DNA from: Candidatus Krumholzibacteriia bacterium
GTDB taxonomy: Bacteria; Krumholzibacteriota; Krumholzibacteriia; WVZY01
Assembly (NCBI GenBank): GCA_036478295.1
Contig: JAZGDW010000214.1
Span: forward strand, 1-41,474
DNA: 41,474 nucleotides
Direction: 5' to 3'
The notes under the pieces were generated by a model. That model made no database searches. It saw only the letters and a program-made list of their open reading frames with translations, and had not been told where the DNA came from. How positions within the stretch are numbered: position 1 is the first letter of the stretch; each line of letters begins with the position of its first letter. The position numbers and the translations under genes were made by a program. Shown in pieces: positions 12,550-40,814 of this stretch.

Positions 12550-12562
12550 CGTGGGAGGAAGA

Positions 12563-16558: not shown

Positions 16559-17554
16559 ATGGCCAGGCTGCAACGCACCTCCCTGGTCGCGATTCTCTTT
16601 CTCTTTGGCACTTCCCCGCTGGTGCGCCCCGCCCACGCGGAGGCCCCCTATGTCTTCGTGGAAACCTGGGGGTCGCTCGGCAGCGGCGACGGTCAGTGCC
16701 GGCGCCCGCACGGCATCGTCTACTCACCCTTCGACGGGCACATCTACGTCGCGGACACCCGCAACAACCGCATTCAGAAACTCACCACCGATGGTACGTT
16801 CGTAACGAGCTGGGGCAGCCTGGGCAGCGGCCCGGGTCAGATGAGCTGGCCGCACGGCATCGGCGTGGCACCGAACGGCGATATTGTCGTGGCGGACACC
16901 CGGAACAAGCGGGTGGAGAGGTTCACGAACGACGTGACTTTTGTCACCACGTGGGGCTCAGAAGGTGCGGCGCCCGGGCATTTCACCAAACCCATCGGCC
17001 TCGCCGTCGGCCCCAACGGCTTCGTTTTCGTGTGCGACGCCAGCGCCCACCGCGTGCAAAAGTTCACCGGCGACGGCAAGTTCGTCACCCTGTGGGGAAC
17101 GCGAGGCAGCGCGCCGGGGCAGTTCGATGTGCCGGTCGATTGTTTCGTGGATGCGAATGGGGACGTGTACGTAACGGACGCGGTGAACGGCCGCGTACAG
17201 AAATTCACCAACAACGGCGTCTTCATCCTCGAATTTGGCGAAACCGGTTCCGGTGACGGGCAGTTTCAGACACCGCACGTCCCCGCCACGGGCCCGGACG
17301 GCAACGTCTTCGTGTCCGACGAGTTCAATCACCGCATACAGAAGTTTACCAGCACCGGCACCTTCCTCACCACATTCGGGTCCTTCGGCTCCGGTGACGG
17401 GCAGTTCTGGGCGCCAATGGGTGTGGCGGTGGACGCCGACGGCAACGTCTATGTCGCCGACTCGACCAACCACCGTTTTCACAAGTGGGCCAACCCCGCG
17501 CTGGTTCCCGTGGAGAGGTCAACCTGGGGCCGGACAAAGTCCATCTTTCGCTAG
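16559..17554 (+). CDS. secreted NHL-repeat six-bladed beta-propeller with C-terminal TWG motif
   Basis: Signal peptide (..AHA/E); six repeats of G.G.GQF..P.G.AV...G..YVAD..N.R.QKF; ends PVERSTWGRTKSIFR. Confidence 0.9.
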   Translation: MARLQRTSLVAILFLFGTSPLVRPAHAEAPYVFVETWGSLGSGDGQCRRPHGIVYSPFDGHIYVADTRNNRIQKLTTDGTFVTSWGSLGSGPGQMSWPHGIGVAPNGDIVVADTRNKRVERFTNDVTFVTTWGSEGAAPGHFTKPIGLAVGPNGFVFVCDASAHRVQKFTGDGKFVTLWGTRGSAPGQFDVPVDCFVDANGDVYVTDAVNGRVQKFTNNGVFILEFGETGSGDGQFQTPHVPATGPDGNVFVSDEFNHRIQKFTSTGTFLTTFGSFGSGDGQFWAPMGVAVDADGNVYVADSTNHRFHKWANPALVPVERSTWGRTKSIFR

Positions 17555-18438
17555 TCCGCCGGGTACTCGCGCAGAATCGGCCGCGTGAGACATGTCGGTC
17601 CCCCCGCCCCTTTCAAACTGATCTCACTTGCCTCGAACTCGTGCACCTCGACACCGGCCGCCTCGAGTCTCGACCGTGTCGAGGGATTTCCGGGCAACAT
17701 GACGCACGTGCGCGGCGCGACCGCGAGAACGTTGCACGCCATGGTGTCGAATTCGTCGCCCGCAACGTCGATCAGCTCGATGCCGCGCGAGAGAAGCGCC
17801 TCGCGAAAACGCACCGGCAAGAGCGGTGAGTACACCAGGGCGAGATCCCGGTCGATGGGACTGAGGATCGACATCAGGTGAAATACGTCCTGCGGTCCGC
17901 GCCAGTGCGGCAGCGGCACGACGATCAGTTCGGCGATGCAGCCGCCGAGCAGCTGCCGCACTTGCCGAATACCGGCGTCGTTCGTCCGGTAGCCGCTTCC
18001 CACAGCGAGTGTCTGCTCGTCGATCCACACCACGTCGCCGCCTTCGATATGGCCCGCGCCGTCCACCCGCCCGTGCAGCGTCAGATCCATCTCGCCGAGC
18101 GCCGTCTCCACCGCCGCCGGCTCATCTCGCCTCTCGACCTTCGCCATGTTGCACAAGATCACGCCCTTGTCGCAGACGATGAACGCATCCCGCGTGTAGA
18201 TCGAGTCGAGGCCGGTGTGCGGGTCCAGGGGAAGAAAAGCGATGTCCATGTCGAAACGTCGTAACAAAGACACAAACCCGTCGTACTCGGTCACCGCCCG
18301 CTCGAAGTCCGGGGGACCCGCGTAGCCGAGGGGCCGCCACTGACGCCCAATGGCGCTACCCGCCACGAACGCATCCCTGGCGTGCTTGAGCACGATGCGC
18401 TTGATCGCACCGACATCCGATTGGTAACCGATATTCAT
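17551..18438 (-). CDS. amidinotransferase / dimethylarginine dimethylaminohydrolase (pentein) family
   Basis: DSIYTRD, IEGGDV, RTN..G, FHLMS and GGPTCLTRP motifs. Confidence 0.88.
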   Translation of the reverse strand: MNIGYQSDVGAIKRIVLKHARDAFVAGSAIGRQWRPLGYAGPPDFERAVTEYDGFVSLLRRFDMDIAFLPLDPHTGLDSIYTRDAFIVCDKGVILCNMAKVERRDEPAAVETALGEMDLTLHGRVDGAGHIEGGDVVWIDEQTLAVGSGYRTNDAGIRQVRQLLGGCIAELIVVPLPHWRGPQDVFHLMSILSPIDRDLALVYSPLLPVRFREALLSRGIELIDVAGDEFDTMACNVLAVAPRTCVMLPGNPSTRSRLEAAGVEVHEFEASEISLKGAGGPTCLTRPILREYPAD

Positions 18439-18447
18439 TGGCTGATC

Positions 18448-18461
18448 TTGATAAAAGTCAA
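18448..18461. promoter_or_regulatory. FNR/Crp-family-like box
   Basis: TTGAT-aaaa-GTCAA, one mismatch to TTGAT-N4-ATCAA, in an AT-rich divergent intergenic region. Confidence 0.4.
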
Positions 18462-18530
18462 ATTCAAAAGCGATACGAGAACGTTTAAGATTTTAGCAGT
18501 TCTCATTACCATCGCAAAGGAGATAGACCA

Positions 18531-19433
18531 TTGTCGTCTACCGCACCAGCCGGACACACCGCCCCAATCCCCCGGCTACGCAAGAGCGCGCTCATGTCGG
18601 GCAATGAGGCCATCGCACGCGGCGCGTGGGAGGCCGGCGTCCACTACGCCACCGGCTATCCCGGTACGCCGAGTACCGAGATACTCGAGAACATTTCCAC
18701 TTATTCGAGCATACAGTGCGAATGGTCCACCAACGAAAAGGTCGCTCTCGACATCGGCATGGGGATCTCGCTGTCCGGCAAGCGCGCGCTGGTAACGATG
18801 AAGCATGTCGGGCTCAACGTCGCCTGCGACTCGTTCATGGTGCTTGCCTACTCCGGTTGCATCGGCGGGCTCGTCGTCGTGTCGGCGGATGACCCCGGCA
18901 TGCACTCATCGCAAAACGAGCAGGACAACCGTTATTTTGCGAAGTTCGCCAAGGTGCCGTTGCTCGAACCGGTAGACCCGCAGGAGGCGAAGGACTTCGT
19001 GGCAATCGCCTTCGAAATGTCCGAGCGGTTCGAGACACCCGTGCTGCTCCGCACGACCACCCGGATTTCACACACCAAGGGCGTGGTCCAGCTCGGTGCG
19101 CGAAGCGTGGGGCCGCCGTTGCGTTACGAGACCGATATCCCCCGCTTTCTCGTGCCACCGTTCGCCCGCAAGCGGCGGCCGACGGTCGAAGCTCGAGTAA
19201 AGCGGTTGCAGGGATTCAGCGAGTCCTTCGAGTTCAACCGCGTCGAAGAGGGAGAAGCGCATACCGCCGTCATCGCGAGTGGAGTGGCCTACCAGTACGC
19301 CCGCGAAGTCTTGCCCGATGCGACGTATTTGCGTATTGGCATGGCGTTCCCGTTCCCGGTCGAGAAGGCGCACGACTTTTGCGAGCGTTTCGAGACCGTC
19401 CATGTTATCGAGGAAGGCGAGCCGGGAAGCTGA
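18531..19433 (+). pseudogene. iorA: indolepyruvate:ferredoxin oxidoreductase alpha subunit, C-terminally truncated
   Basis: GNEAIARG, YPGTPSTEI, NEKVA, MKHVGLNVA.D and ADDPGMHSSQNEQD; stops at VIEEGEPGS after 300 aa, lacking the TPP-binding and ferredoxin domains; no iorB follows. Confidence 0.75.
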
Positions 19434-19630
19434 CCGCCTTGTCATCCGGCCACACAAGTCCAAAGCGCGGACCTTGTTGGCTTGCTAGTTGCTTTTAATG
19501 CCCCAAGACCGTGAGTGCCACAGCCTGCCCCGCAGTGTTGCCAGGGGGCTGCCACGGACGAAACGTGTTAACTGGCTATTTCTGAGTGGCTCACCTGGCA
19601 AGGAAATCCCGCCTTATCATGGAGGAAATT

Positions 19631-20341
19631 ATGACCCAGCCGAAGATTGCCACTCTATTATCGCGTTTTGCAGTGGTCTGCATTGCGCTGTTGCTGGCAG
19701 CCTGCAGCAGTTCCGATACTCCGACCCAGCCGATTATCACCAATCCAGGGGGCACCGGGTCGATGACGCTCCAGGTGGATGCGGACGCCCTGGGGGCCGA
19801 CGACGGCCCAGGCGGCACTTTCATCACCGATTTTAGCGTTACCGTTAGTGATACGCTGGGCGTACCCGTTACGGGCGCGACCGTTGCCGTGCAGACGCCC
19901 TACGGCACCGTCACATTGATAGAGGCAGGCACCGCCGGAACCTACAACGCCCAGACACAGACCTACCAACCGGGCGTGTACTCGGTGAGCGTCGTGCGTG
20001 GACCGGACAACGTAACTGGAGTCACCGTGATTGGCCCCGAGATTCACACGATTACGTTTCCCACAGCGCAGTCGGCGATCGCCATGGACCAGCCGATCGA
20101 TGTTCGCTGGTCCCGTTCGACAGCCGCACAGGAATCACGTGTGGAAACGAGGGACTACACGGGCAACTGGGTCATGTCTGACACCGGTTTCTCGACCGTG
20201 CCGGCTTCCGGCAACCCGCCCCGCACCGACCAGCGTTTCCGGGTGAAGCGAGCCAACCGGCAGGCGGCGAGCGGCGGACTCGCGGGCTCCGATTTCCGGG
20301 TGCGGATTCGCACCGAGGTCGAGCCGGTCGTGTCCCAGTAG
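19631..20341 (+). CDS. hypothetical lipoprotein (Ig/beta-sandwich-like, Thr/Gly-rich)
   Basis: LLLAACSS lipobox; RBS GGAGGA at 19621. Confidence 0.75.
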   Translation: MTQPKIATLLSRFAVVCIALLLAACSSSDTPTQPIITNPGGTGSMTLQVDADALGADDGPGGTFITDFSVTVSDTLGVPVTGATVAVQTPYGTVTLIEAGTAGTYNAQTQTYQPGVYSVSVVRGPDNVTGVTVIGPEIHTITFPTAQSAIAMDQPIDVRWSRSTAAQESRVETRDYTGNWVMSDTGFSTVPASGNPPRTDQRFRVKRANRQAASGGLAGSDFRVRIRTEVEPVVSQ

Positions 20342-20349
20342 AGATCAAG

Positions 20350-20395
20350 ACACCCCTCTGGCCTGGACCCCTGCCAGGCCGGGGGGTGTTGCTTT
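20350..20395. terminator. GC-rich hairpin / probable terminator between convergent genes
   Basis: ACACCCCtctGGCCTGG-loop-CCAGGCCggGGGGTGT followed by TGCTTT. Confidence 0.55.
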
Positions 20396-20435
20396 ACCCC
20401 GCTTTCTAGACCCACACACGTCGATAATCTTCGAT

Positions 20436-21308
20436 CTACAACTTATCGGGCTCCGTGTGCACGACGACGTCGACGATCTTCAGGTGAGACTCGGATAACC
20501 GATCGGCCACATCGTGCGCTATCTCGTGTCCACGACGCACGGTAATCGCACCGTCCACGATGACGTGAATATCCATCAGCAGGCCCAGTCCGCTCTTGCG
20601 GATACGACATTTCTCGATGGCGACCACGCCGTCGACCGCTCCGGCAATGCTTCGGACCTCGCTCTCGACGCCCGACGGAACGGCGGCGTCCATCACCTCA
20701 TCGACCGCCGGCCGCAACAGGCGGATGCCGTTGTAGAAGATGACCACGCAGGCGACGAGCGCCGCCCAGTCATCGGCGGTCTCGTACCCCCTGCCACCGA
20801 TCAATGCGATGGAAATGCCGACGAAGGCGACCGACGACGTGATGGCATCGGAGCGGTGATGCCAGCTGTCGACTTTGAGAGAGTGGCTGCCGAGCGCGTC
20901 CCCGGCTTTGGAGAGAACCCGGTACATGGTCTCCTTGATAACGACCACGGCCACGAGAACGAGCAGCGTGTACCAGGCGGGGGCGTGGTGGGGCATAAAG
21001 ATTTCCCGCACACTCTGCACGGCAATAATGAGTCCCGCGACGAGCAACGACAGGGCCACAAGGACCGCCGCAAAGGACTCCGCCTTGCCGTGTCCGTATG
21101 GATGCGTGCGGTCCGGCGGTATCGCTGCAATGCGCAGGCCGCTCCACACGATGAGCGAAGAGACGATGTCGATCGTTGATTCGATCCCGTCGGCGATGAG
21201 GGCGTAGGAATTCCCGATGACCCCGGTCGTAATCTTGGTCACCGCCAGGACGACGTTGACCGCAATAGAAGCCCCGGAAAGTCGCAGACCCCGGCCCAGC
21301 AGTGTCAT
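20436..21308 (-). CDS. cation diffusion facilitator (FieF-like) transporter
   Basis: S.ALIADGIES..D, PPD..HPYGHGKAE, HHRSD and HEIAH...VVVHTEP motifs. Confidence 0.92.
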   Translation of the reverse strand: MTLLGRGLRLSGASIAVNVVLAVTKITTGVIGNSYALIADGIESTIDIVSSLIVWSGLRIAAIPPDRTHPYGHGKAESFAAVLVALSLLVAGLIIAVQSVREIFMPHHAPAWYTLLVLVAVVVIKETMYRVLSKAGDALGSHSLKVDSWHHRSDAITSSVAFVGISIALIGGRGYETADDWAALVACVVIFYNGIRLLRPAVDEVMDAAVPSGVESEVRSIAGAVDGVVAIEKCRIRKSGLGLLMDIHVIVDGAITVRRGHEIAHDVADRLSESHLKIVDVVVHTEPDKL

Positions 21309-21445
21309 TCCACAAACCCCGCGTGCACGCTGGGGTTTCCATCGGTGATTTTTAACATTCTTTTGAGCTCATTGAAGGTTAGTGACTTGTGAACGGACAG
21401 GGCACTGACAATCCCGAGACGGACCGGCTCGTGAGTTCGCCTCAG

Positions 21446-21499
21446 CTCAAGTCGCGTGCCAGACTCAAGTCGCGTGCCAGACTCAAGTCACTTGCCAGA
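21446..21499. repeat. 3 x 18-bp tandem repeat overlapping the DUF2938 stop codon
   Basis: CTCAAGTCGCGTGCCAGA x2 plus CTCAAGTCACTTGCCAGA. Confidence 0.9.
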
Positions 21500-21989: not shown

Positions 21990-22248
21990 GGGATTCCTCC
22001 TGGCCTACATTCCTCAGACAAAACCCTCCCCCAAGAGACCACCCCACCCGACTCGGGCAAGTATACCCGATTTGGTCCTCCCGCACCGCTTCCCTTTGAT
22101 TGCCACACCCTGGAGCGAGGAACCGATCACAAAGGTTTGTGGGCGTGGATCTGACGGCTCGGCCCGGGAGGATGTATCGCCCCATGTCAAGAACCGCACA
22201 AAAACACGCCAGTCGTCGTTTCGGTTTTTTCTGTCCTGCCGTCACCGG

Positions 22249-22710: not shown

Positions 22711-22794
22711 ACACGAACCTCCTTGCTCGCGGCCGCGCCCAGCGGCTCGGTTAAACTACTAAACCACAAAAACACGTTACTGCCGGCACCGCTG

Positions 22795-23376: not shown

Positions 23377-23422
23377 CCGGTTTCGCACTTCCTTTCGCCG
23401 GGCGCTACCGTAAACGCCGCGC

Positions 23423-23857: not shown

Positions 23858-23868
23858 AACATGCCTCC

Positions 23869-26268
23869 TTATGCAACCCTCGCGATGCTCACTGCGCATT
23901 TCTTGTAGTCGGTCTGCTTGGATATCGGGCAGAACGCATCCAGTGTGACGTTGTTTATCATCACGTCCTCGTCGAACCAGGGGACGTAGACCATGCCCTT
24001 CTGCGGGGTGACCCGTCCGCCGATTTCGACATGCAGATCGACGTGACCTCGTCTCGATGCGATCCGCACCTTGTCACCGTTCTTGAAACCCAGCCGCGCC
24101 GCATCATCGGGGTGCAGGGTGGCCGTGGCGTGAGGATACGCCCGCGCGAGGTTTTTCACCCTGCGCGTCATGGTACCGGAATGCCAGTGCTCCATTACCC
24201 GGCCCGTGCACAGCCACAAGGGATATTTCGCGTCCGGCATCTCGGGGGGATCCTCGTACGGCCGAAACCAGATCGTCGCCCTGTCGTCCTGTTTCTTGTT
24301 GCCGTAAAACTGGAATCCGCGGCCCTTCTCCACATACGGGTCGTACCCTTCGCGGTAGCGGATGAGCGTCTCCTTGCCATCAACGACGGGCCACCTCAAA
24401 CCCCGCGTTTCGTGATAGCGGTCGAAAGGCGTGAGGTCGTGCGCGTGACCGAGGCCAAACTTGCGATACTCCTCCCACAAGGCCTTCTCCATATAGAAGC
24501 CCGCCGTGACACTGGCATCCGATGCCTTGTGGCCGGCGGGAATCGCGTAATCGGTCGCGGGGTACTCGAAGAGCTTGCCGTGGCCCATGCGCTTGGCGAA
24601 CTCGATGATCTGCCACAGATCGGACCTGGACTCACCCGGCGCATCGACCATCTGTTTCCAGAAGTGCGTGCGGCGTTCCGCGTTGCCGAACGAGCCTTCC
24701 TTCTCCACCCACATGGCGGTGGGCAGCACGATGTCGGCCACCTCGGTGGACCGCGTGGGGTAGACGTCCGACACAACGACGAAGCGTCCCTCCTTGAGCG
24801 CGCCGTCGCGGTAGCGGTTGAGGTTCGCGTAATCCTGGAACGGATTGGCCGTCGTCGACCAGAAGAACTTCACGTCTCCCCGATCCAGGGCACGCACCAT
24901 CTCCACCGCGTGATAGGTTGGTTTGTCCGGAATGGTTCCGGCCGGCAAACCCCATATCTTCTCCGCCACCTCCCGGTGCTTCGAGTTCCCCACCACCATA
25001 TCGGCGGGCAGGCGGTGGGTAAACGTGCCGACCTCGCGGCAGGTGCCGCACGCACTCGGCTGGCCGGTCAGTGAATACGGATGGTTGCCGGGTTCGCTGA
25101 TCTTGCCGGTCAGCAGGTGCAGGTTGTTGATGAGGTTGTTCATCCACGTGCCGCGCGTGTGCTGGTTGACCCCCATGGTCCAGAACGACATCACTTTGAT
25201 ATTGGGGTCGCCGTAGATCCCGGCCAGGTATTCCAGGTCCGCCGGCGACACGCCGCTGATTTCCGCCACGCGCTCCGGCGTGTAATGCGCAACGGATTCC
25301 TTGAACGCGTCGAACTCGATGACCTCCGCCTTTTCCTTGAACACGGACTTGTCTTCGAGGCCGTAGCCGATGTTCTCCCTGCCCTTCTTGAAGAGCGCAT
25401 GTTTGCTCAGGAACTTCTCGTTGATCTGTCCCTTCTGGATGAGCAGGTTGGCGATACCGTTGGCGATGGCCAGGTCCGACTGCGGTTTGAAGATGATTTC
25501 TTTCTCCGCCACCTCCGACGAGCGGGTAGACATCGTCGTCAGGTTGACGAGCCGTGCGCCCGTGCTGGCGAGAAGCCGGTTGGTCATTTTGGAATGCAGG
25601 ATGGGATGCATTTCCGCGGTGTTGGCCCCCCATAGTATAAAGGCATCGCAATGGTCGAAGTCCTCGTACGTCCCCATGGGCTCGTCCATGCCGAACGTGG
25701 TCATGAAGCCCGCCACCGCGCTCGCCATGCAATGGCGAGCGTTGACCTCGAGGCTATTCGACCGCAGTCCTCCCTTCCACAACTTCGCCGCCGCGTATCC
25801 TTCCCATATCGTCCACTGCCCGGAACCGAACATCGATACCGCCGCCGGGCCTTTTTCCTCGATCGCCCGCTTCGCCATGGTCGCCATCAGGTCCAGCGCG
25901 TCGTCCCACGAGGCTTTCTCGAGCTTGCCGCGTTTGTCGTAGCGGCCGTTTCGCATCCGAATCAGCGGCACGGTCAGCCGGTCCGTGCCGTACTGGATGA
26001 ACGGCAGCGCGTAGCCTTTGACACACAGCGTCCCCTGGTTCACGGAAGATTCGGGATCGCCTTTGACCGCCATTATCTTGCCGCCGCTCACGCCGACCAT
26101 CACCGAGCAACCCGTTCCGCAAAACCGGCAGGGCGCCTTGTCCCATACGAGGTCCGTCTCCGGGTTACCGGCGAAACTTTCGAAGGGATTGAGATAGATG
26201 CCGCTCCCCGACACGAGGAGCGTACACGCACACTGTCTGATGAAATCTCTCCTCGACAGCGGTTTCAT
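23869..26268 (-). CDS. napA: periplasmic nitrate reductase catalytic subunit
   Basis: Tat signal SRRDF; CRFCGTGC..LCVKG 4Fe-4S motif; NARHCMASA; SLTGQPSACGT; C-terminal CPISKQTDYKKCAV. Confidence 0.96.
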   Translation of the reverse strand: MKPLSRRDFIRQCACTLLVSGSGIYLNPFESFAGNPETDLVWDKAPCRFCGTGCSVMVGVSGGKIMAVKGDPESSVNQGTLCVKGYALPFIQYGTDRLTVPLIRMRNGRYDKRGKLEKASWDDALDLMATMAKRAIEEKGPAAVSMFGSGQWTIWEGYAAAKLWKGGLRSNSLEVNARHCMASAVAGFMTTFGMDEPMGTYEDFDHCDAFILWGANTAEMHPILHSKMTNRLLASTGARLVNLTTMSTRSSEVAEKEIIFKPQSDLAIANGIANLLIQKGQINEKFLSKHALFKKGRENIGYGLEDKSVFKEKAEVIEFDAFKESVAHYTPERVAEISGVSPADLEYLAGIYGDPNIKVMSFWTMGVNQHTRGTWMNNLINNLHLLTGKISEPGNHPYSLTGQPSACGTCREVGTFTHRLPADMVVGNSKHREVAEKIWGLPAGTIPDKPTYHAVEMVRALDRGDVKFFWSTTANPFQDYANLNRYRDGALKEGRFVVVSDVYPTRSTEVADIVLPTAMWVEKEGSFGNAERRTHFWKQMVDAPGESRSDLWQIIEFAKRMGHGKLFEYPATDYAIPAGHKASDASVTAGFYMEKALWEEYRKFGLGHAHDLTPFDRYHETRGLRWPVVDGKETLIRYREGYDPYVEKGRGFQFYGNKKQDDRATIWFRPYEDPPEMPDAKYPLWLCTGRVMEHWHSGTMTRRVKNLARAYPHATATLHPDDAARLGFKNGDKVRIASRRGHVDLHVEIGGRVTPQKGMVYVPWFDEDVMINNVTLDAFCPISKQTDYKKCAVSIARVA

Positions 26269-26408
26269 GCCCGCCTCTCCTTTCTTGCACAACGGCAAAC
26301 GTACGCCTTTGACGCAATCATCGATTTCCGCGACTAACTGTAGCGGGCAAAGCAGGACCCGTCAAGAAACGGTGCGCCGATTCGCGGGGAGTTGACAAGA
26401 ATCATGAC

Positions 26409-28628
26409 TCACCTCGCGGGCGGCTGTACACGCACCACCACCGATTTGAACGCGGGCGTTCCTGAGGCCTCGTCGAGGCGGCGGGGCACGAGTTCGTTCG
26501 CCTCCGGGTAGTACATGGCCAGATTGCCGGGACGGATGTCCACGATCGCAACGGAAACCTCCAGGCGCCCCGTGTCGTTCGACACGGTCACGCGGTCGCC
26601 CTCCGCCAGACCGAGGCGCTCAGCATCCTCCCGCGCCATCATGACCACGTCGCGGCGCCGGTTGCCGCGGTAGATGTCCGCTTCCTCGTAGACCACGGTG
26701 TTGAACTGCCCTTCGGAGCGTACCGTCATCAGGCGAAACGCCGGCTCATCGCCACCGGCCCCTGGGCCATGCGGCGACAACTCCTGCGCGAAAGCGGGGA
26801 GCGGCGTCACGTGGAACTGCGCCTTGCCGCTTGGTGTGGCAAACTGCGGTTCGTGAAAGGTTCTTCCGTCGATCTGAAACTCCTCCTGTGTGCGGTCCAT
26901 CTCGCCGATCGCCTCGTAGCCGGGAACCACGCGCGCCATCGCTTCGCGGAGCTGCCGGTGGGAACGCATCGCCGACCAGTCGAACCGGTCCCGGGGGAGA
27001 ATGCGTTCGGCCAGCGACGCGATGATGTCGACTTCGGACCGCATCTCACCCTCCACCGAAGGCAATCCGCCATCGGAAAGGCGTACGAAGTTGAACATCG
27101 ATTCCTGGGTAGTCGTCTGCAACTCCTCGTCGCGAGCGAGCGCGGGCAGAATGAGTGAGGTCTTGCCGCGGCCGTGGATGTGCCCCTCGTTGAGCTTGGT
27201 GGACACGTAAACCGTCGTCCGTATGTTGCGCAGCGCCTCGGACGCCCACTTGCGGTCGGGGTTGCTGGCGAACAGGTTGCCACCGAGAAAGAAAGCGGCG
27301 CGCACCCGCCCGTCCGCCGCCGCCTGCATCGACCGATAGGTGTCCATGCCGGGCTTACCGGGGGGCGGGATACCGTACACCGCCTGCATCCTTTCCGCAA
27401 ACGCCTTCTTGAGTGACGGCGTCATCCCCATCGAGCCGATTCCCTGAACGTTCGAGTGACCGCGGATCGGCAGCAGCCCGCACCCGGGACTCCCGAGCCA
27501 GCCGCGGGCCAACGCCAGGTTGCTGAGCGAGAGGACATTATCGACCCCGTTGACGTGGTGTGTCAGTCCCATCGCCCAGCAGAAAATCCCACGCTTCGCG
27601 GTGAGCAGCATGTCCACGGCCTGCGTGATCGCCGCCCGGGACACCCCGCTTGCAGCGACGAGATCGTCCCAGGAAGCCGCGCTGACATCGTTCTTCACTT
27701 GTTCCCATCCATCAGTGTAATTATCTATATATTCGCTTGTTACACCACCAGCTTCGAGCACCCCTTTAAGCATGGCTTTGAATAGTGCCACGTCGCCGCC
27801 GATGTGGGGCTGCAGGTAAAGGTCGGAAATGTTCGAGCCGAATATGAAGCTTCGCCAGTCGGACGGTACGCGGAAGCGAACCAGGCCCAGCTCACGCAGG
27901 GGGTTGATGACGATGACCCGGCCGCCCCGGCGGCGGAGCCGCACCAGCTGCGTGATGAGCCGGGGATGATTGCTGGCCGGATTGGCACCGGCGATGACCA
28001 CCAGGTCGGTCTTGTCGAGATCATCCAGCGTCACCGACGCCGTCCCGGAGCCGTAGACCCGCGACAGCGCTACCCCGGACGCGGAGTGGCAGTAAAACGA
28101 GCAGTTGTTGATGTTCTGGGTGCCGAAGGCGCGGGCGACCACCTGCATGAGAAACGCCGCCTCGTTGCTCGCCCGCCCCGATGCGTAGAAAAAGGTCTCG
28201 ACCGGGCCAGCGTACTGAAACGCCCTCGCCGTACGATTGAGCGCCTCTTCCCAGGAAATGCGGCGCAGGTGCGTGTCGTTTTCTTCGACCACCATGGGAA
28301 AGGTGATGCGGCCAAGACGCTCGAGCTGAGCGGGGGTCGACGTTCTGAGACGGGCGATCGGATAATCGCGCAGAAGCGGTTCGGAGATCGAACCGCTCAT
28401 GTCGGCGGCCTGCGCCTGCAGGGACTTCTTGCACACTTCGGGAAAGTGTCCCGCCTCGTTGACCATGCCGCCCCGCTGTCCGCCCATGCCGAGCGCACAG
28501 GTCTTGCAGGTGTTACGCGATCGCATGCGACGGTAGAGACGGAGAAGGCCTCCCGCCTGTCGGCCCATGCGAAACGCATAGACAAGAGCGGCGAGGCCGC
28601 CTCCGGCGGAGACACGGGGTTTGGCCAT
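26409..28628 (-). CDS. FdhF/YdeP family molybdopterin oxidoreductase
   Basis: CKTCALGMGG, YASGRASNEA.F, NNCSFYCH..SG, PIRGHSNVQG and RSEGQFNT motifs. Confidence 0.9.
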   Translation of the reverse strand: MAKPRVSAGGGLAALVYAFRMGRQAGGLLRLYRRMRSRNTCKTCALGMGGQRGGMVNEAGHFPEVCKKSLQAQAADMSGSISEPLLRDYPIARLRTSTPAQLERLGRITFPMVVEENDTHLRRISWEEALNRTARAFQYAGPVETFFYASGRASNEAAFLMQVVARAFGTQNINNCSFYCHSASGVALSRVYGSGTASVTLDDLDKTDLVVIAGANPASNHPRLITQLVRLRRRGGRVIVINPLRELGLVRFRVPSDWRSFIFGSNISDLYLQPHIGGDVALFKAMLKGVLEAGGVTSEYIDNYTDGWEQVKNDVSAASWDDLVAASGVSRAAITQAVDMLLTAKRGIFCWAMGLTHHVNGVDNVLSLSNLALARGWLGSPGCGLLPIRGHSNVQGIGSMGMTPSLKKAFAERMQAVYGIPPPGKPGMDTYRSMQAAADGRVRAAFFLGGNLFASNPDRKWASEALRNIRTTVYVSTKLNEGHIHGRGKTSLILPALARDEELQTTTQESMFNFVRLSDGGLPSVEGEMRSEVDIIASLAERILPRDRFDWSAMRSHRQLREAMARVVPGYEAIGEMDRTQEEFQIDGRTFHEPQFATPSGKAQFHVTPLPAFAQELSPHGPGAGGDEPAFRLMTVRSEGQFNTVVYEEADIYRGNRRRDVVMMAREDAERLGLAEGDRVTVSNDTGRLEVSVAIVDIRPGNLAMYYPEANELVPRRLDEASGTPAFKSVVVRVQPPAR

Positions 28629-30611: not shown

Positions 30612-30707
30612 TTCGAATCCTTTTGGTAAAGACCGTCTTTATCTAATTACCCCGGGTCGGAGACCCTATTCAATGGGTATTTGATGGTACTTGACGGTTG
30701 GCGCCTC

Positions 30708-33550: not shown

Positions 33551-34008
33551 GGGTAACTCACTTTCTTGACAAGTTGACACCGCTCCACGGCGCGGACGTG
33601 ATCCATCCACGGGCGGTGTGTATCCTCCATTCGCGGCGCCGGTCTTCGGGCGCGCGGGCGGCGGCACCTCGCATTCGCGGTGCGGCAATACAGGCATGCG
33701 GGAGCTGGGGCGACGGCATGACCTCTCGTACGACGCCCAGTATATAGTCCTTCGTGCCAGTGCTCAACTCGTTTACCTCTCCCATACGTGCGACGGTCAG
33801 ACGCTTTGCCCGCCGGGTTCAACGCCCAGGACACATGACTCGCCGGCAATCTCCTAACTCGCTCGCGAAAAAGCCCTTGAAAGGAGAAAACGGCGAGCTT
33901 ACCTTGCAGGGGGACGGGTTCGGGCCGCTGCGGGCCGGGCCTCGCACGACCCACGCGGGGCACGACGCCGTTGAACACGCCGGGCTGCACGTCCCGGAGG
34001 AAACGCGA

Positions 34009-34914
34009 GTGAAATCGACGATCAAGCGAATCATTCCCAAAGGCATCCGGCGCGGGGTCCGCAAAGTCGCACGGCGATTGGAACTGCGGCGAATGCGGGC
34101 GCGTAACCCGTCGGTCGCCAAATCCCAACTCGTGCGCGACCTGACCGCCCTGGGGCTGGAGACCGGGGATCTGCTCTACGTCCACAGCTCGCTACGTGCG
34201 CTGGGTTTTGTGGACGGCGGCGCCGATACCGTCATCGACGCCCTGCTCGACACGGTGGGCCCGGAGGGAACGCTCGTCTTTCCGACCTTCACACTGGTGC
34301 GTGGCATGAAAGAAACGCTCGAGGCGCGTGACCACGTCTTCGACCCGGAATCCTCCCCCTCAACGGTTGGCAAGATAACGAATTGTTTTCGCGCGAGGCC
34401 CGGCGTACGGCGTAGCGAGCACCCGACCCATTCGGTCGCCGCGCTCGGTCCCCTGGCGCGGGAACTCACGGAAACCCACCTGGAGGAGGGAATGAACTTC
34501 GGCAAGGGGACCCCGTTCGACAAAATCCTGCGGCACGGCGGCAAGGTCGTGGGACTGGGAGTGAACTTCAGCCCGATCACTTTTTATCACGTCTTCGAAG
34601 AGTTCAATCCGGAGAAGTTCCCGGGGGTATACCTGCCGCATGCGTTTCCCGCGAAGATAAAGGTGGGAGACAACATCCGGGAAGTGAAGGTCCGCTGTCA
34701 CGATCCCGTATTCCACCAACAGAGAATAGACAAGGTGCCCGCCATTGAGTCCTATTTCTCGTCGTACTATCACTCGGAGGGCGTGGCGCACGTGGGCAAG
34801 GTGGGTAACGGCAGTGCTCCGTCGTGGTGGATCCGCGCGGCGGATGTGATGCAGTGTCTCGACAAGCTGTACTCGCGGGGAATTACCATCTACAAGACAC
34901 CCAACCTGGACTGA
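34009..34914 (+). CDS. AAC(3)-family N-acetyltransferase
   Basis: GDLLYVHSSL, GTLVFPTF, RSEHPTHSVAA.G and TFYHVFE motifs; GTG start after GGAGGA. Confidence 0.85.
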   Translation: MKSTIKRIIPKGIRRGVRKVARRLELRRMRARNPSVAKSQLVRDLTALGLETGDLLYVHSSLRALGFVDGGADTVIDALLDTVGPEGTLVFPTFTLVRGMKETLEARDHVFDPESSPSTVGKITNCFRARPGVRRSEHPTHSVAALGPLARELTETHLEEGMNFGKGTPFDKILRHGGKVVGLGVNFSPITFYHVFEEFNPEKFPGVYLPHAFPAKIKVGDNIREVKVRCHDPVFHQQRIDKVPAIESYFSSYYHSEGVAHVGKVGNGSAPSWWIRAADVMQCLDKLYSRGITIYKTPNLD

Positions 34915-34998
34915 GCAAACCTCGTGGAACGCTCGCTACGGGTGTCCGAAGCTACCACACGCAGCGGAGGAGTGATCCACCAACAAGACGAGCGCGAG

Positions 34999-36078
34999 CT
35001 ATGCAGACAAGCGGTCTACACACGCGGATACCGGCTGAAAACTGACGACCCCTTCGTACCGGGTCCTGGCCACCTCGAAAAATTTCCTCAACTCCACCAG
35101 GTGATAATCGTAGGTGTCTTTCGGGTGCCCACTCATGCAGACGGTAAAGTCCTGGTTGCGGCAATCGTATCGTCGCAGGTAGGACGCGAGAGTCGTGAGC
35201 ATTGATTCGTGCGTGTCCGCCATGTCCAGCATGCGTGGAACCGACAGCTTCGTAAACTTGTTCTTGATCCTGGTGAACAGGCCCGGGGGCGGACCGATCT
35301 TGGTGACGGGATATCCGCGGATCTCTTGCGGGATGGTTTTCGCGCGCCGCTGGAGGCGCAGCTGGTTAATGGCGTGGTGCCACTGGGAGAAACTACCGCG
35401 GTAGGACGCGATCGAGATCACCAGCAGATCGTCTTTGCTCCCAGTATCCTCTCTAATACCGGTTTGCGGGTGCACAAACCAGGTCGGTTTATCCGGCACC
35501 TCTCTGAAATCCACGGTGTAGTCGGTGCGAAGCATCCGCAGCCCCGGCGTGACCGTGGTGTCGGCCCGGATGCCCTCAGCGAGAAGCGCCGCCACGAGCT
35601 CGGCTTCGGGTTGAAGCAGCCACCCGCCGGCACGAAACGCAACGCAGCGGTACTCCGGATTGTCTCCGCTCAGAAGATCTTCGAGGTACGCCTTGCCCCG
35701 GCGGATGAGCGCGCGGGCGCCTGCCGGGTCATTCTCGGTAAAACCGAGATCGTGCAGCGCGTGCGTCTGCGGTTTGAAGCGCCAGGACTCGTCCTCGTAC
35801 TCCGCTAATCTCCATTCGGGGTGAAGGTGCAGCTGGACGTCGTGTCCGGCGGCCGCCGCTTGTTTGATCTGGGCCTCGAACACATCGGCGTAGCCGGGTA
35901 CACTCAGCTCGCGGTGCCGCCACACCGAACAGATATCCGGAAAGAGCGTGGCCTCGATGTCGAACTCGGCCCATACCTCCAGCAGTTTCCGGGTGGGTTC
36001 GAAGAGAACCTCTTCCACGGGCAGGTGGTTCTTGCCAAGGTAGATTTCGTAGTCGGCGGTTGGGCAGATTGTCAGCAC
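34999..36078 (-). CDS. polysaccharide deacetylase-like (NodB fold) protein
   Basis: TADYE, GHDVQLHLHPEW, FRAGGW and GHPK motifs. Confidence 0.75.
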   Translation of the reverse strand: MLTICPTADYEIYLGKNHLPVEEVLFEPTRKLLEVWAEFDIEATLFPDICSVWRHRELSVPGYADVFEAQIKQAAAAGHDVQLHLHPEWRLAEYEDESWRFKPQTHALHDLGFTENDPAGARALIRRGKAYLEDLLSGDNPEYRCVAFRAGGWLLQPEAELVAALLAEGIRADTTVTPGLRMLRTDYTVDFREVPDKPTWFVHPQTGIREDTGSKDDLLVISIASYRGSFSQWHHAINQLRLQRRAKTIPQEIRGYPVTKIGPPPGLFTRIKNKFTKLSVPRMLDMADTHESMLTTLASYLRRYDCRNQDFTVCMSGHPKDTYDYHLVELRKFFEVARTRYEGVVSFQPVSACVDRLSA

Positions 36079-36106
36079 TGTCGGGTTCCGGCGTTGCGTG
36101 TGAGCG

Positions 36107-36583
36107 CTACTTCTTTGGCCGGGCTTTCTTCCAATCGATGCCCGTCACGATCTCGCGCAGTTCGTCCACACCCCTGCGCAGCGCTGCCAGTTTCGGCTTG
36201 GTGGTCTTTCTGGACAGTACACGGTGGAATTCACGCTGCCGTTTGATGAGACGCCCGAGTAGCCTCTTGCCTTGCGCGGTGAGTCCGACGAGCGGCGACC
36301 GCTCGTGATTCGGATTGTCCCGGTACACGACAAGCTGGTCTCTTACCAGCACATCCGTGATTCGTTGGACGCTCTGACGCCGGTGTCCGAACTCCCTCGC
36401 CAGGTCGGAGACCGTTTTCTTCTCACTGGAAACCGCACTCAGCAACTGCCAGCGCGCGAGTGTCTGCCCTTCCCGTTGCGCGATCACTTCCGCCGCGCCA
36501 CGGAGGACGTCGCCGAGCTCCGAGACACCCTCCACGAGCGCGGAGAGGATTCTCGCTTCTGTCATTCGAGGTTTCGTCGCCAT
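36107..36583 (-). CDS. MarR family transcriptional regulator
   Basis: T.ARWQLL, TVSDLAR..G..RQSVQR, NPNH.RS.LV.LT..G winged helix. Confidence 0.88.
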   Translation of the reverse strand: MATKPRMTEARILSALVEGVSELGDVLRGAAEVIAQREGQTLARWQLLSAVSSEKKTVSDLAREFGHRRQSVQRITDVLVRDQLVVYRDNPNHERSPLVGLTAQGKRLLGRLIKRQREFHRVLSRKTTKPKLAALRRGVDELREIVTGIDWKKARPKK

Positions 36584-36592
36584 GGTGGGAAC

Positions 36593-36642
36593 ACACTACC
36601 ACAATGACAGTATGCTGTCAAACACACGACAGTGTGCTGTCA
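36593..36642 (-). promoter_or_regulatory. MarR promoter with two tandem palindromic operators
   Basis: TGACAG-tatg-CTGTCA (36605-36620) and CGACAG-tgtg-CTGTCA (36627-36642); minus-strand TTGACA-N17-TAGTGT overlaps them. Confidence 0.7.
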
Positions 36643-36782
36643 ATTCTGGTTTCATCATCCACATTAGCCCCGCCCTTTCGACTGTGGCCCGGATGGTAAG
36701 CTCTCACGCAAGGCGAACGTCCCTGTCCGCGAAAGTGATAATAGCCAAGAAATTGTAATTGACGGTTTACATGAATCGCAAA

Positions 36783-36798
36783 TGTAATTAAGTTCACA
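36783..36798. promoter_or_regulatory. CRP/Rex-like box upstream of the cytochrome gene
   Basis: TGTAA-ttaagt-TCACA (1 mismatch to the CRP consensus); a second inverted repeat TGTAA-N8-TTACA at 36754-36771. Confidence 0.4.
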
Positions 36799-36846
36799 AG
36801 AGGAGCGTACCAGATCGACCGAATAAGCAATGAAAGGAGAGTTCTT

Positions 36847-37548
36847 ATGAAACAAGTGGTTTCGAGAGAACTTCTGGGCGTGTGCGTCCTTTTGGTGGCC
36901 GGCTTGTTTGTGTGGGCCGGGCCCGCCAACGCGTACGATCAATTCTCGCAGAACGGCGGGGATGCTACGAACTGCGGCCTCTGCCACGGAAACTTTCGCG
37001 CGGGCAGCTACATTTCGCCCGGTGACGGCCAGGACTGGGGGAACCTCCACAACTTGCATCGCTTCGACATGCTCGGCGGCGACTGCAACACCTGTCACAT
37101 CTCAAGCGGCAGGTTCCCCGTGCTCCTCAATGCGTCGGTTGGTGGCTCCGGCCTCGCGACTATCGGGTGCGTGGGCTGCCACGGGCGGGCGGAGGACAAC
37201 ACCGCTGCGAATCCCGATGTCCCGGGCCTGGGCGGCTACGGCGCCGGATTGCGCCAGCACCACACCCAAGCAGGAGTGGCGGCCTGCACCATCTGCCACC
37301 AGGATGCCGATCCGGCGAAGTATACGCCCGCCAGCGAGACGATTCAGCCACCCTACTACGGCAGCCCCTTCCATCCGGCTATGCCCACGGATGCCTGCAA
37401 CCCGGCGGGTGGCGAGGACTTTGCCGGCGATTCGGATGGGCTGGACAACGATGGCAACGGTCAGTACGACTTCAGCGACGTCAACTGCCTGTCACCGGTC
37501 GAGGAGACCACGTGGGGAGCCATCAAGGCCCTGTACGCGACGGAGTGA
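36847..37548 (+). CDS. secreted tetraheme cytochrome c with acidic DGLDNDGNG motif and C-terminal TWG motif
   Basis: Signal peptide (..ANA/Y); CGLCH, CNTCH, CVGCH, CTICH; ends SPVEETTWGAIKALYATE; RBS AAAGGAG. Confidence 0.88.
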   Translation: MKQVVSRELLGVCVLLVAGLFVWAGPANAYDQFSQNGGDATNCGLCHGNFRAGSYISPGDGQDWGNLHNLHRFDMLGGDCNTCHISSGRFPVLLNASVGGSGLATIGCVGCHGRAEDNTAANPDVPGLGGYGAGLRQHHTQAGVAACTICHQDADPAKYTPASETIQPPYYGSPFHPAMPTDACNPAGGEDFAGDSDGLDNDGNGQYDFSDVNCLSPVEETTWGAIKALYATE

Positions 37549-37649
37549 GAGGTTTGGCGGCACACGTTTTCCCAGCTGCCGGTGATTGATAACGGAAGCA
37601 CCAGTTGCGTTGGACGTACACGATCGTCTCGGTGAAGCGTCGAGGAAGG

Positions 37650-38009
37650 CTACTTCGCCTGCATGATGACGTTGCTGGGATTGGTGATGGTGATGACGCC
37701 ACCGATACCGCACGTTAGCATACTCGGCTGGGTGAGAACGGGAACGTGATTAATCTTCTTGACGATCGAGCCGGGCGTCCACATGCCGACGGGCGCCATG
37801 GCGCAGGGCGTTGGAACGCCTGAGGCCGCGGCGGTGAGAATGTTGCAGGTACCGAAGGGCGGCAGGTTCGCTCCCGTCGCACAGTCCTGAATGGTGGCGA
37901 CCAGCATGCCCCCGACCTTGACGATCTGCTGGCTGGTGACACTGAGCGTCGACGGGGCGGTACCCATCGGGCACATGCACATCGCTCCCTGGCAAACCAC
38001 CGATGGCAC
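37650..38009 (-). CDS. DUF4280 (PAAR-like) protein
   Basis: VCQGA.C.CPMG, ATI.D, N.PPFG.C, PC.....W..G and L.C..GG.I.I pattern. Confidence 0.85.
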   Translation of the reverse strand: MPSVVCQGAMCMCPMGTAPSTLSVTSQQIVKVGGMLVATIQDCATGANLPPFGTCNILTAAASGVPTPCAMAPVGMWTPGSIVKKINHVPVLTQPSMLTCGIGGVITITNPSNVIMQAK

Positions 38010-38153
38010 GGTTCATCCTCCGCTGTTCGGCCGCCGCCCCCCCGTCTCGTCCCCTACTTCTCGATCTTCTGGCGGCTACCTGCTTGCCTGGCAAGGATAA
38101 CATCTGGCGGCTCATGATGCAACGATTTACCGCGCGCCGCGCCGGAGCACACG

Positions 38154-38957
38154 TCACGGCCTTCGTACGACCCAGAACTTTTGCGCACACTCGGGAATCA
38201 AGAACGCTTCCCTCTCCAGAGTGGCGAAGTCGCCGAAGAGCGTCTCCAGGAAGGAAGGTGGATGGTAGGCCACGTATAGCTTGCTGCCCTCCATCACACC
38301 GTCTTTCACCACGATCTTGCCCGCCTGGTACAGGGCCTTGTGCTCGGGCAGCAGTCTGTCGTCGAAATCATGGAACGATGCGATGAGGATACCACCCGGC
38401 TTGAGGGCCCTGCGCATCTCCTTCACCCACCGGTAGTGGGCATCTTCGGAAAGGTGCGTGAAGACCGAGATGGCATAGACGACGTCGAACGAGGCGTCCT
38501 CGACCGGTAGCGGCGGGTTCAGATCGTTCCGAAGAAAATTCACGCCGGGTATGGATCGCCTGCACCACTCGATCGTGACGGGGTTGTAGTCCGTCCCGGT
38601 AAACCGCGCGTCCCGTCCCTCAAACAGCTGCGGCAGGTGCCTGAGCAACCTGCCGGGACCACAGCCCCACTCGCAGATCCGCAAGCGCTCTCCGGGATGG
38701 TACTTGTTGATGATCCCGGCCAGGTGCCGCGCGTAGGCAGCGCCCTGATCGAAATACGCGCGGTAGTGTGTCGAGCCGAAGGCGTCGAACATCCAGCGTT
38801 TCGGCGGCGCCACGAAATCCGGGTGCTCCTCGAGAAACTCCCGGTTTCCACGCTCCGTCCGCAAGAGCTCCCTGCGGAAGCGCACGAAGTCCAGCGGACC
38901 CAGCAATCTCATTCTGCGCGCCGCGGCTGCCAGCCTCCGCTGCAACTGCACATTCAC
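38154..38957 (-). CDS. class I SAM-dependent methyltransferase
   Basis: EWGCGPGR, FDVVYAISVFTHL and LKPGG motifs. Confidence 0.88.
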   Translation of the reverse strand: MNVQLQRRLAAAARRMRLLGPLDFVRFRRELLRTERGNREFLEEHPDFVAPPKRWMFDAFGSTHYRAYFDQGAAYARHLAGIINKYHPGERLRICEWGCGPGRLLRHLPQLFEGRDARFTGTDYNPVTIEWCRRSIPGVNFLRNDLNPPLPVEDASFDVVYAISVFTHLSEDAHYRWVKEMRRALKPGGILIASFHDFDDRLLPEHKALYQAGKIVVKDGVMEGSKLYVAYHPPSFLETLFGDFATLEREAFLIPECAQKFWVVRRP

Positions 38958-39090
38958 ACCTTCCTTCTCTGGGAGTCTGTTTGTCGATGCTCGTGATCCG
39001 CCCCTGCGGAACGCTCGCGGACGAAGTTTACTATAACACTCATTACACTGGAAAAACCGCTGATCCGAATATCCTCCACCCCGCGGTCGC

Positions 39091-40083
39091 CTATTGTCCG
39101 CGCCGGATCGCCTGCCCCTTCACCGGCTCGCCCCGCGAAACGGGCTTGCCGTCGGCGAGGTAGCCTTGGAACTGAGCCGGCAGTCCCTCGCCCAGCCCAA
39201 AGGCAGGAGTGTTCTGCAGGTGGCAATGGAGGTGGGGCTCGCTCGAATTCCCGCTATTGCCGCAGAGCCCCAGGAGGTCGCCGGTCACGACACGCTGGCC
39301 CTTCTCCACGGCGACGGTCCCCTTCTTGAAATGGGCGAGGAACGAATATTCTCCGCTGCCGTGGTCGAGGATCACGTGATTTCCCAGTGCCTGTTTTGGG
39401 TTCATTACCCCGGGGATGTTGTCCTCGACACCGTTCTCCATCACGACCACCAGGCCTGCGCCGGGCGCAAGAATACGTTCACCAAAGCAGTAGAAGTCCT
39501 GGTTCCGTTTGCCGTCGCCCGCGTGGGTCGAGCCGTCTTTCATCATCAAGATGTCGTAGGCGAATCGCTGGTCCACGGTGAACGCGTGATAATTCTCCGC
39601 GATGGTCCGGCCGCCCCACACGACAAACCATTTCCCCTCGAACGGCAACTCGAGCTTCGTCCTCGTCTCATAATCGAGGTATTTGCTGGGCGCTTCCGTT
39701 TGGACGGGGCGGATATAAAACCCGGCCACGACGCCTTTCTTGTCGAACGCCCACTGGACGTGGATCAACTGGTCGAGTTTCTCAAAGCGGGCCGTGCGCA
39801 GGTATACGCTCAAGGCGCCGACTTCTTCGACTGTCTCGGCAATGGTCGCTGTCTCCTTGCCGAGCTGTTCTCTTGTCTGCTCGTAAAACGCCCTGAGGTT
39901 GTTCTCACTGCCGAGGGCGTTTTTCATTTCCGGGGAAAAGTTCTGCCAGATCTTGTCGAGCTCGCCGCCGAAGAAAAGTGCGCAGTGCCGGCGGCCGAGA
40001 TCCATGAAGGACGGATCGGCGGATGCGCCGAGCAGCAACAATGCGGTCGCAATAACCACCACATGAAAACGAGGTTTGATCAC
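39091..40083 (-). CDS. M23 family metallopeptidase with N-terminal DUF3887-like domain
   Basis: Signal peptide; H.....QRFAYD, GNHVILDH, AHFKKG and GNSGNSSEPHLH motifs. Confidence 0.88.
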   Translation of the reverse strand: MIKPRFHVVVIATALLLLGASADPSFMDLGRRHCALFFGGELDKIWQNFSPEMKNALGSENNLRAFYEQTREQLGKETATIAETVEEVGALSVYLRTARFEKLDQLIHVQWAFDKKGVVAGFYIRPVQTEAPSKYLDYETRTKLELPFEGKWFVVWGGRTIAENYHAFTVDQRFAYDILMMKDGSTHAGDGKRNQDFYCFGERILAPGAGLVVVMENGVEDNIPGVMNPKQALGNHVILDHGSGEYSFLAHFKKGTVAVEKGQRVVTGDLLGLCGNSGNSSEPHLHCHLQNTPAFGLGEGLPAQFQGYLADGKPVSRGEPVKGQAIRRGQ

Positions 40084-40187
40084 CGTCCGGAGCTTACACT
40101 ATTTCTGGCCGCTTCGTGAATAGCCGAAGCACGTCTCGCATCCCGATTAGCCGAACAGCGCGCTCAAGCTGCCTCGTCCACGTTGGC

Positions 40188-40814
40188 TCACCGGACGAAA
40201 CTCCTGCTGAATAGGAATTTCACGAGGCCCCAGGATACGTTCTCGACCGGCACCTGTGCCGGCGGAGTGATCGAGAGAACCGCCGAGGCGGAATCGTCGT
40301 AGTCGACCCTCACGCCACCGCACGTCTTATAGTCCGGCTTTTCCAGTGGGCCATTCCAACCCATGACGCGAACCGTCATTGTGCCCGCTTCACGGGTCAA
40401 CTCGAGGTCCACCTCGCCGATAACCATTCCGGATGTTATGTCAAAACACGCCGCCGGAAAGGTCACCTCGGCAGCAACGAAGTTTCCAATGGAGTTCTGC
40501 CATGCGGCGACGTCGCCGGGGCTTCTCACCTCCGTCAGCACGACGGCCGCGGCCTCCGAAAACTGGAACCCGAAGCGATACCCCGTAACCCTTTCGGGAA
40601 GCGATCCAGAAATGACGTAAATCGTAAACGCCTCTCCCTGACCCACCTCCCGCGTGAAATCCTGCGCGGGGTCGCCGGTTAGTTGCGGGTTGAACGCCAC
40701 GACAATTTGTCCTTCGCCAGGTTCGACGACCGTTGCCGAAATGGTTGAAATGGGAGTGCACACCAGCAGCATCGCGAGGACTATTGCGACGCGTGGCATC
40801 GAGTTTCCAGGCAT
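40188..40814 (-). CDS. secreted hypothetical protein (cohesin-like beta-sandwich) with C-terminal SWG motif
   Basis: Signal peptide; beta-rich; ends VPVENVSWGLVKFLFSRSFVR; GGAGG RBS before ATG 40814. Confidence 0.7.
   Translation of the reverse strand: MPGNSMPRVAIVLAMLLVCTPISTISATVVEPGEGQIVVAFNPQLTGDPAQDFTREVGQGEAFTIYVISGSLPERVTGYRFGFQFSEAAAVVLTEVRSPGDVAAWQNSIGNFVAAEVTFPAACFDITSGMVIGEVDLELTREAGTMTVRVMGWNGPLEKPDYKTCGGVRVDYDDSASAVLSITPPAQVPVENVSWGLVKFLFSRSFVR

Follow-up and report, generated by a model that had tools for sequence, protein, structure and literature searches.

A short C-terminal tail on small secreted proteins of Krumholzibacteriota, apparently an undescribed form of sorting signal

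The window analysed here, a whole stretch of 41,474 nucleotides from a Candidatus Krumholzibacteriia bacterium (assembly GCA_036478295.1, contig JAZGDW010000214.1), encodes three secreted proteins of different fold that end in the same short tail. Throughout the genome of origin (the source genome, G000; 3.5 Mb, 91% complete) this tail serves as a portable tag at the C-terminus of small, unrelated signal-peptide proteins, and in close relatives of one carrier, a tetraheme cytochrome, it replaces the type IX secretion system's (T9SS) C-terminal domain (CTD) at the same junction. Its role as a sorting signal, which we infer from genomics, is supported, and the tail apparently represents a further form of C-terminal sorting signal, real and undescribed so far. 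The residues at its start and the genes that accompany it suggest, with somewhat better than even probability, a minimal T9SS-type signal processed by a sortase of the PorU family.

The tail and its carriers

The original prediction, made from the letters of the window, had placed a common motif at the extreme C-terminus of three signal-peptide proteins with unrelated folds. The three tails indeed translate as quoted, each directly followed by its stop codon, and signal-peptide-like N-termini start at 16559, 36847 and 40814 (Table 1). The NHL propeller was recovered by PF01436, and the cytochrome keeps four CxxCH motifs that are invariant among 26 aligned sequences; an AlphaFold model of the latter, with a predicted local distance difference test score (pLDDT) of 44, was set aside. 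The third protein, described as cohesin-like, could be placed indirectly: hhalign aligned it with a cohesin-fold family at 85% and an E-value of 6e-6, the tail being included in the alignment, and Cohesin is found on 16% of the members of one neighbouring Atlas cluster, whereas the hidden Markov model (HMM) of the cohesin family gave no match at an E-value of 1e-3 and a homologue search of the database returned the protein itself alone. It is probably a divergent member of this family.

Table 1. Tail-bearing genes of the window and their tails
Feature	Coordinates	Strand	Basis
NHL-repeat beta-propeller gene, signal peptide and tail	16559..17554	+	PF01436, E 2.9e-44, 6 stretches; translation of N-terminus and tail
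Tail 1, including stop codon	17504..17554	+	Translation, profile match
Tetraheme c-type cytochrome gene, signal peptide and tail	36847..37548	+	In homologues this site carries a T9SS CTD or a different sorting module
Tail 2, including stop codon	37492..37548	+	Translation, profile match
Signal-peptide protein gene with tail, probably divergent cohesin-fold member	40188..40814	-	Indirect; no Pfam family
Tail 3, including stop codon; slightly unusual, longer by 5 residues	40188..40253	-	Translation, profile match

The tails have neither a transmembrane helix, as had been foreseen (best 17-residue hydropathy 0.56 in the median and 2.0 at the highest), nor a basic cluster; they end about 10 residues past the Trp and have a net charge of about +1.6. 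Their proposed amphipathic character was upheld on the Fauchere-Pliska scale, where the hydrophobic moment of 0.478 lies above all 2000 shuffles (0.32 +/- 0.025), and not on that of Eisenberg, which gives 0.324 against 0.327 and no excess over shuffles. In structural models the tail appears as coil plus a short helix of low to medium confidence, with a pLDDT of about 60-68 in the cohesin model, where it stands off the cohesin domain. No secretion machinery was detected among the 29 other open reading frames (ORFs) of the window, all metabolic, transport-related or unassigned, in agreement with the original prediction; candidates are encoded elsewhere in the source genome, namely SprA, barrels of the PorV family and two PorU-like C25 enzymes.

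A loose form of the motif was applied to all stop-to-stop frames of the source genome that reach 40 residues (49,853) and matched 33 times at 10-14 residues before the stop, against 0-7 times in each other 5-residue bin up to 99 residues. An HMM built from the three window tails alone, the check proposed together with the prediction, retrieved 38 ORFs at 12 bits or more, two of them gene fragments, with the next match at 8.4; a second round added none in this genome. The motif ends within 12 residues of the stop in 37 of the 38, and without the three seeds 34 of 35 profile matches remain C-terminal. Moreover, a crude signal-peptide rule is passed by 31/38 tail ORFs versus 596/1795 control ORFs, the expected enrichment on exported proteins, and by 63 of 67 CTD proteins of the same genome. 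The sole internal copy (G000:C45:28609-30159; L002:1-1548, +) lies 89 residues before the end of a lipoprotein-like protein and is possibly a fusion relic. Over 36 aligned tails the consensus is V-P-V-E-x-x-T-W-G-x-I-K-A-L-Y, about 16 residues with invariant W, G and K. None of these 36 matches an NCBIfam model or a relevant Pfam model, and TIGR04183 and PF18962 likewise miss all 36 tails and the three window proteins. Neither outcome named in advance as refuting the prediction, a lack of C-terminal enrichment on signal-peptide proteins or a match to a known CTD model, was thus obtained.

The passengers are diverse, the 34 scanned comprising NHL, CHRD, lamin-tail, BACON, beta-helix, DUF7450, temptin and Rax2-like domains, and one cohesin-fold family accounts for 15 of the 38 ORFs. 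Their median length is 225 residues, compared with 711 for CTD cargo, and the two signals exclude each other: 93 CTD ORFs of the source genome show zero overlap with the tail ORFs. One cohesin-family protein of this genome ends in a CTD and not in the tail; altogether there are 18 cohesin-family ORFs and only 2 of X-dockerin type. Two large tail proteins stand in tandem at G000:C69:11805-16667 (L006), each with two cohesin-family domains flanking 4-5 BACON repeats in a scaffoldin-like arrangement.

Exchange with the T9SS C-terminal domain

Homologues of the window cytochrome numbered 157, and the best 120 of them were listed and classified by their C-terminal end. Among these 120, the tail is found in 27 (26 by HMM and 1 by eye), a CTD in 43 and both in none, and the remaining 50 include, by eye, PEP-CTERM-, MYXO-CTERM- and IPTL-like ends as well as dockerins. 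Both tail and CTD are joined right behind the last Cys of the cytochrome, where a [ST][GASP][VTI] motif occurs within 3 residues in 18 of 25 tail forms and 33 of 41 CTD forms; the junction residue is Pro in 16 of the 18 matching tail forms and Ala or Gly in 31 of the 33 matching CTD forms. The best cytochrome tree, of 69 rows after one tail row with no anchor had been dropped, needs 6 changes between tail and CTD.

Two homologues (P0102 and P0115) carry another very short tail that starts with P-V-E and continues with L-M-T-F, possibly a sister signal. Two more (P0037 and P0083) are fused to a dockerin that resembles that of the X-dockerin gene described below, and could dock on tail-anchored cohesins.

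Taxonomic range

The tail is present in 21/21 close relatives of the source genome, in 150 of 151 genomes of its phylum, the Krumholzibacteriota (the single negative genome, G079, has diverged tails by eye), in 49 of 51 Eisenbacteria and in 22 of 61 Latescibacterota. One Planctomycetota-labelled bin contains 4-5 tails on short contigs, a probable contamination, and none was detected in 50 other Planctomycetota genomes; a similar tail is presumably present in Poribacteria. A DNA pattern run over a genome collection located the tail at at least 128 loci, which, among the matches listed, belong to Eisenbacteria, Krumholzibacteriia, Latescibacterota, Gemmatimonadota and one Planctomycetota. The 126 distinct tails of these loci lie within 15 residues of the stop in 124 cases and run off the locus in 2, and 61 of 67 of the proteins pass the crude signal-peptide rule. 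In the protein database, a 42-residue tail profile gave 101 matches among 8000 candidates scored, with the motif at most 20 residues from the end in 100 and no source name that mentions a signal; an Atlas search with the tail alone returned no usable feature match. No description of the tail was found in the literature, supplements and most subscription papers lying outside the search, which leaves absence from print unproven; in the accessible part of PMC4454575 cohesin, dockerin and C-terminal all go without mention.

Type IX machinery and a PorU-like paralogue

The source genome encodes a SprA (517 bits), 11 PorV-family matches of which 6 are over the cut-off, C25 enzymes and 82 matches to TIGR04183, and SprA is found in 42 of 43 other tail-bearing genomes. 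A search for the exosortase family PF09721 returned none in the 91% complete source genome, its control having matched in 1 of 14. The neighbours of 170 tail loci include CTD genes in 28 cases, PorU-like genes in 9 and X-dockerin genes in 9, and no other dedicated membrane or peptidase family recurred on clustering. No tail-linked copy was seen in the PorV-family neighbourhoods of the source genome (7 contigs viewed). On five contigs (C218, C203, C190, C265 and C139) PorV-family genes immediately follow those of secreted proteins whose CTD-like ends are atypical, in the manner of type B cargo/PorP pairs.

One gene block brings the tail together with a putative enzyme. On contig C48 of the source genome an X-module/dockerin gene is followed by four tail genes and by a PorU-like gene whose second half is on C292; a canonical PorU with PorV behind it is encoded on C289/C288. 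A PorU-like search matched all 44 phylum genomes examined (44/44), and the best match of 32 and the second match of 8 were inspected. Cohesin-fold tail genes stand directly upstream of the PorU-like paralogue at 30 of 32 loci (24 by HMM and 6 with diverged tails by eye; 2 are without), compared with 0/8 canonical PorU loci. In other named lineages tail genes are found at most 7 kb upstream of the paralogue at 10 of 13 loci, and paralogue-level matches of at least 450 bits occur in 45 of 51 Eisenbacteria, and 2 further ones show halves at the edge of a contig.

The paralogue consists of a Propeptide_C25 domain, a Peptidase_C25 domain with the His/Cys dyad and a C-terminal CTD-like domain. In two trees it stands apart from canonical PorU, and in that of 45 rows it forms one side of a branch with an SH-aLRT (Shimodaira-Hasegawa-like approximate likelihood-ratio test) support of 97. 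The catalytic His and Cys are kept in 40/40 aligned PorU-like rows, and the paralogue shows a QxH[AM]N motif where canonical PorU has GHG[SN]. Against the PorU model NF033707 the copy of genome G001 (L353:1622-5761, minus strand) scores 193.5, below the 420-bit cut-off, compared with 555-712 for canonical copies. The name PorU2 was considered and rejected: the paralogue shares with NF052324 ('putative T9SS sortase PorU2') the condition of a second PorU-related protein, but it scores 91.8 against a cut-off of 450 and therefore does not belong to that family. The paralogue is a candidate for a dedicated sortase of the tail. The tail proteins of the block have a cohesin beta-sandwich (model pLDDT 90), with 2vo8 aligned over 119 residues at a Z of 12.4 and a root-mean-square deviation of 2.4, and the 20 best rows of the structure search are all cohesins or cohesin-containing entries; with the family as query, a sequence search of the PDB gave one weak match (E 0.5). 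The first gene of the block resembles X-dockerin modules.

The Latescibacterota, where the tail is patchy, provide a comparison. Some PorU-like gene is present in 61/61 genomes. A PorU of the canonical clade occurs in 20/20 genomes with at least two tails, and among the 39 tail-less genomes 25 possess only a long protein (a class assigned mostly by length), 2 have truncated matches and 12 a copy of canonical size. The long PorU-related family (about 1900 residues; 1860-2460 in L268-L272), which is the only PorU-like gene of those 25, falls short of the PorU2 cut-off and, in 3 of 3 cases, of that of NF033707, which short forms pass in 2 of 2. The long-only genomes are tail-less and keep SprA and, in 3 of 3 cases, CTD cargo; therefore, the tail vanishes in the absence of the true sortase.

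Likeness to a PorU site and proposed mechanism

The start of the tail resembles a PorU cleavage site. The sites measured in Porphyromonas gingivalis follow X/(GSA)(VLI), for example PT/ATEQ, D/SVED and N/GVED, in the accessible part of PMC4560394, and the available portion of PMC11969387 gives PT/GI as the preference in Prevotella intermedia. The 52 Latescibacterota tails have the consensus P-T-A-V-E: the residue before V is A, S or G in 46, V follows in 50 and E in 40, and T precedes the small residue in 25. Pro is the residue that would come first after cleavage in 2/52 of these tails and in 8/31 sampled from paralogue-bearing lineages, samples that consist of top HMM matches and related genomes and not of independent draws. 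The linkers of Latescibacterota CTDs, with the motif in 4/59 and mostly from machinery proteins, are uninformative.

In the mechanism that we propose, Sec export would follow from the predicted signal peptides, and the predicted helix W-G-x-[IV]-K-x-L-aromatic would then be recognised in place of the beta-sandwich CTD for which it is swapped. Passage might proceed via a translocon of the SprA/PorV type, whose genes are present, and the protein would be cut ahead of the small residue in T/[AGS]-V-E, with transfer to a surface acceptor, the likeness of the motif being the basis for this step. The outcome would be a protein anchored or released at the cell surface. Canonical PorU would process the tail in Latescibacterota, and in Krumholzibacteriota and Eisenbacteria the paralogue would be a tail specialist that may accept Pro. 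If this is true, a signal of 16 residues lowers the minimum for T9SS export, believed to need a folded C-terminal domain, and would offer a very small tag for surface display; in abundant uncultured phyla, tens of hypothetical proteins of each genome could be given a location, and the multiheme cytochromes among them could act outside the cell. The PorU-like enzyme with its changed active-site motif is a named partner, and the idea is testable in vitro without culture of the host.

Weighing the alternatives

A number of observations weigh against a PorU-processed signal. The known CTDs fold into beta domains, and engagement of PorV by a 16-mer is hard to account for. In 33 of the 38 source-genome tails the residue that would follow the cut is Pro, which could block cleavage; this proline, the main difficulty, is compatible with a specialised enzyme as well as with a tail that is shielded from cleavage. 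SprA fails to discriminate because it is present in 60/61 Latescibacterota, and SprA and PorU are missing from the Planctomycetota-labelled bin. The paralogue clade was not found in the 61 Latescibacterota and hence is not needed for tails; tail genes adjoin none of 40 PorU loci there, and canonical PorU is insufficient, with 12 tail-less genomes having one by size or by tree. Among the long-only genomes, 2 of the 25 have been placed in a tree, CTD cargo is reduced too (three of them have 10-14 CTD matches, whereas two tail-positive genomes have 47 and 71), and the joint loss of tail and canonical PorU may be one evolutionary event. Further Eisenbacteria loci have tail genes beside the paralogue in 3 of 12 cases (the upstream sequence was shorter than 3.5 kb at 8, and 2 that had 12 kb showed no tail gene), and the paralogue is retained by seven genomes in which tail matches number 0-2. 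The strongly supported branches of the cytochrome tree force 1 swap only. Finally, GldM and GldN were not found in five genomes (G000, G011, G015, G076 and G172), in a search without a positive control in which K and L were not looked for; genomes with SprA, PorV and PorU and no GldM/GldN match may have a motor-less T9SS-like system. The broader notion that type IX cargo signals include a fourth class, formed by a 16-residue peptide that joins a PorU site to one short helix and needs no folded CTD, with a Pro-cutting paralogue and a motor-less SprA/PorV/PorU set in at least three uncultured phyla, can be put forward tentatively at best.

The frequent Pro would suit a tail that is never cut and acts as a retained docking helix. 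Such a helix would bind an envelope scaffold or a membrane surface and keep small proteins periplasmic or surface-bound, and what resembles a PorU site would be a leftover linker. The positive charge of the tail, its hydrophobic face on one scale, its position off the modelled cohesin domain and the small size of its passengers fit such a role, which leaves unexplained the position of tail genes upstream of the paralogue and not of canonical PorU (30/32 vs 0/8), the T/AVE start in lineages with canonical PorU alone and the loss of the tail where canonical PorU is missing; we consider it rather unlikely. The tail might also bind a CTD-bearing carrier, such as the PorU-like protein, and be dragged through SprA with it, cleavage being secondary. 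The paralogue has a CTD-like domain of its own, CTD genes lie in 28 of the 170 tail loci, and a 16-mer is without the CTD strands that, in the accessible part of PMC10202324, are reported to contact PorM and PorV. Such a piggy-back handle is nevertheless improbable: dozens of passengers per genome would share a single carrier gene, no further partner family recurs beside tail genes, and the start of the tail matches a cleavage motif as well as a binding motif. Simple co-occurrence carries little weight, as nearly all genomes of these phyla have SprA and PorU-like genes, and the same fact leaves room for a tail unrelated to type IX secretion, as a tag for a periplasmic protease or for another lineage-specific pathway. 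The exchange with the CTD and other surface-sorting modules at one junction, the exclusion with the CTD and the operon of tail genes with the PorU-like paralogue speak against this last explanation, which seems very improbable. A signal read by a PorU-family sortase thus remains the reading that we prefer.

Relation to known systems

As observed for the type A CTD of the T9SS (TIGR04183, PF18962), the tail is C-terminal on unrelated signal-peptide proteins, has no membrane helix and starts with a PorU-site-like motif; both are interchangeable on one cytochrome family, and the same genomes have SprA, the PorV family and PorU (NF033707, NF033709, TIGR04189). Unlike that CTD, it comprises 16 residues instead of 70-100 and a predicted helix instead of a beta-sandwich, matches no CTD model, is carried by smaller passengers, often has Pro first and shows linkage to a distinct PorU-like paralogue. 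Types A, B and C are all given as roughly 70-100 residues in the accessible parts of two reviews (PMC10202324, PMC11285876), and types B and C, as defined in the available portion of the former, are motif-bearing domains of about 100 residues; no sorting model matches the tails. The shortest CTDs described in the accessible part of PMC11969387, from Prevotella intermedia, have 40-55 residues with three predicted beta-strands and motifs B, D and E, and are still cut and glycosylated, which indicates that a T9SS signal can shrink, but the tail has neither the three strands nor these motifs.

With PEP-CTERM/exosortase, MYXO-CTERM and LPXTG/sortase the tail shares the principle of a C-terminal tag that is portable and, for the tail putatively, read by a transpeptidase dedicated to it; it differs from them in lacking both the transmembrane helix and the basic cluster. 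Known cohesins that anchor to the cell and have X-dockerins as partners include ScaE of Ruminococcus and SdbA/CipA of Clostridium. The gene block is alike in its Ig-like X-module plus dockerin gene, C-terminally tagged cohesin-fold genes and sortase-type gene, and unlike in its double-membrane cells, its C25-type enzyme and the lack of cellulases among the genes seen.

Other genes of the window

Apart from the tail genes, the window contains a run for PrpD, aconitase, isocitrate/isopropylmalate dehydrogenase and citrate lyase (7905-15422, +), and two molybdopterin oxidoreductase genes in tandem (23869-28628, -). An ORF of 386 residues (33754-34914, +) has a domain of the aminoglycoside 3-N-acetyltransferase family (PF02522, E 8e-50).

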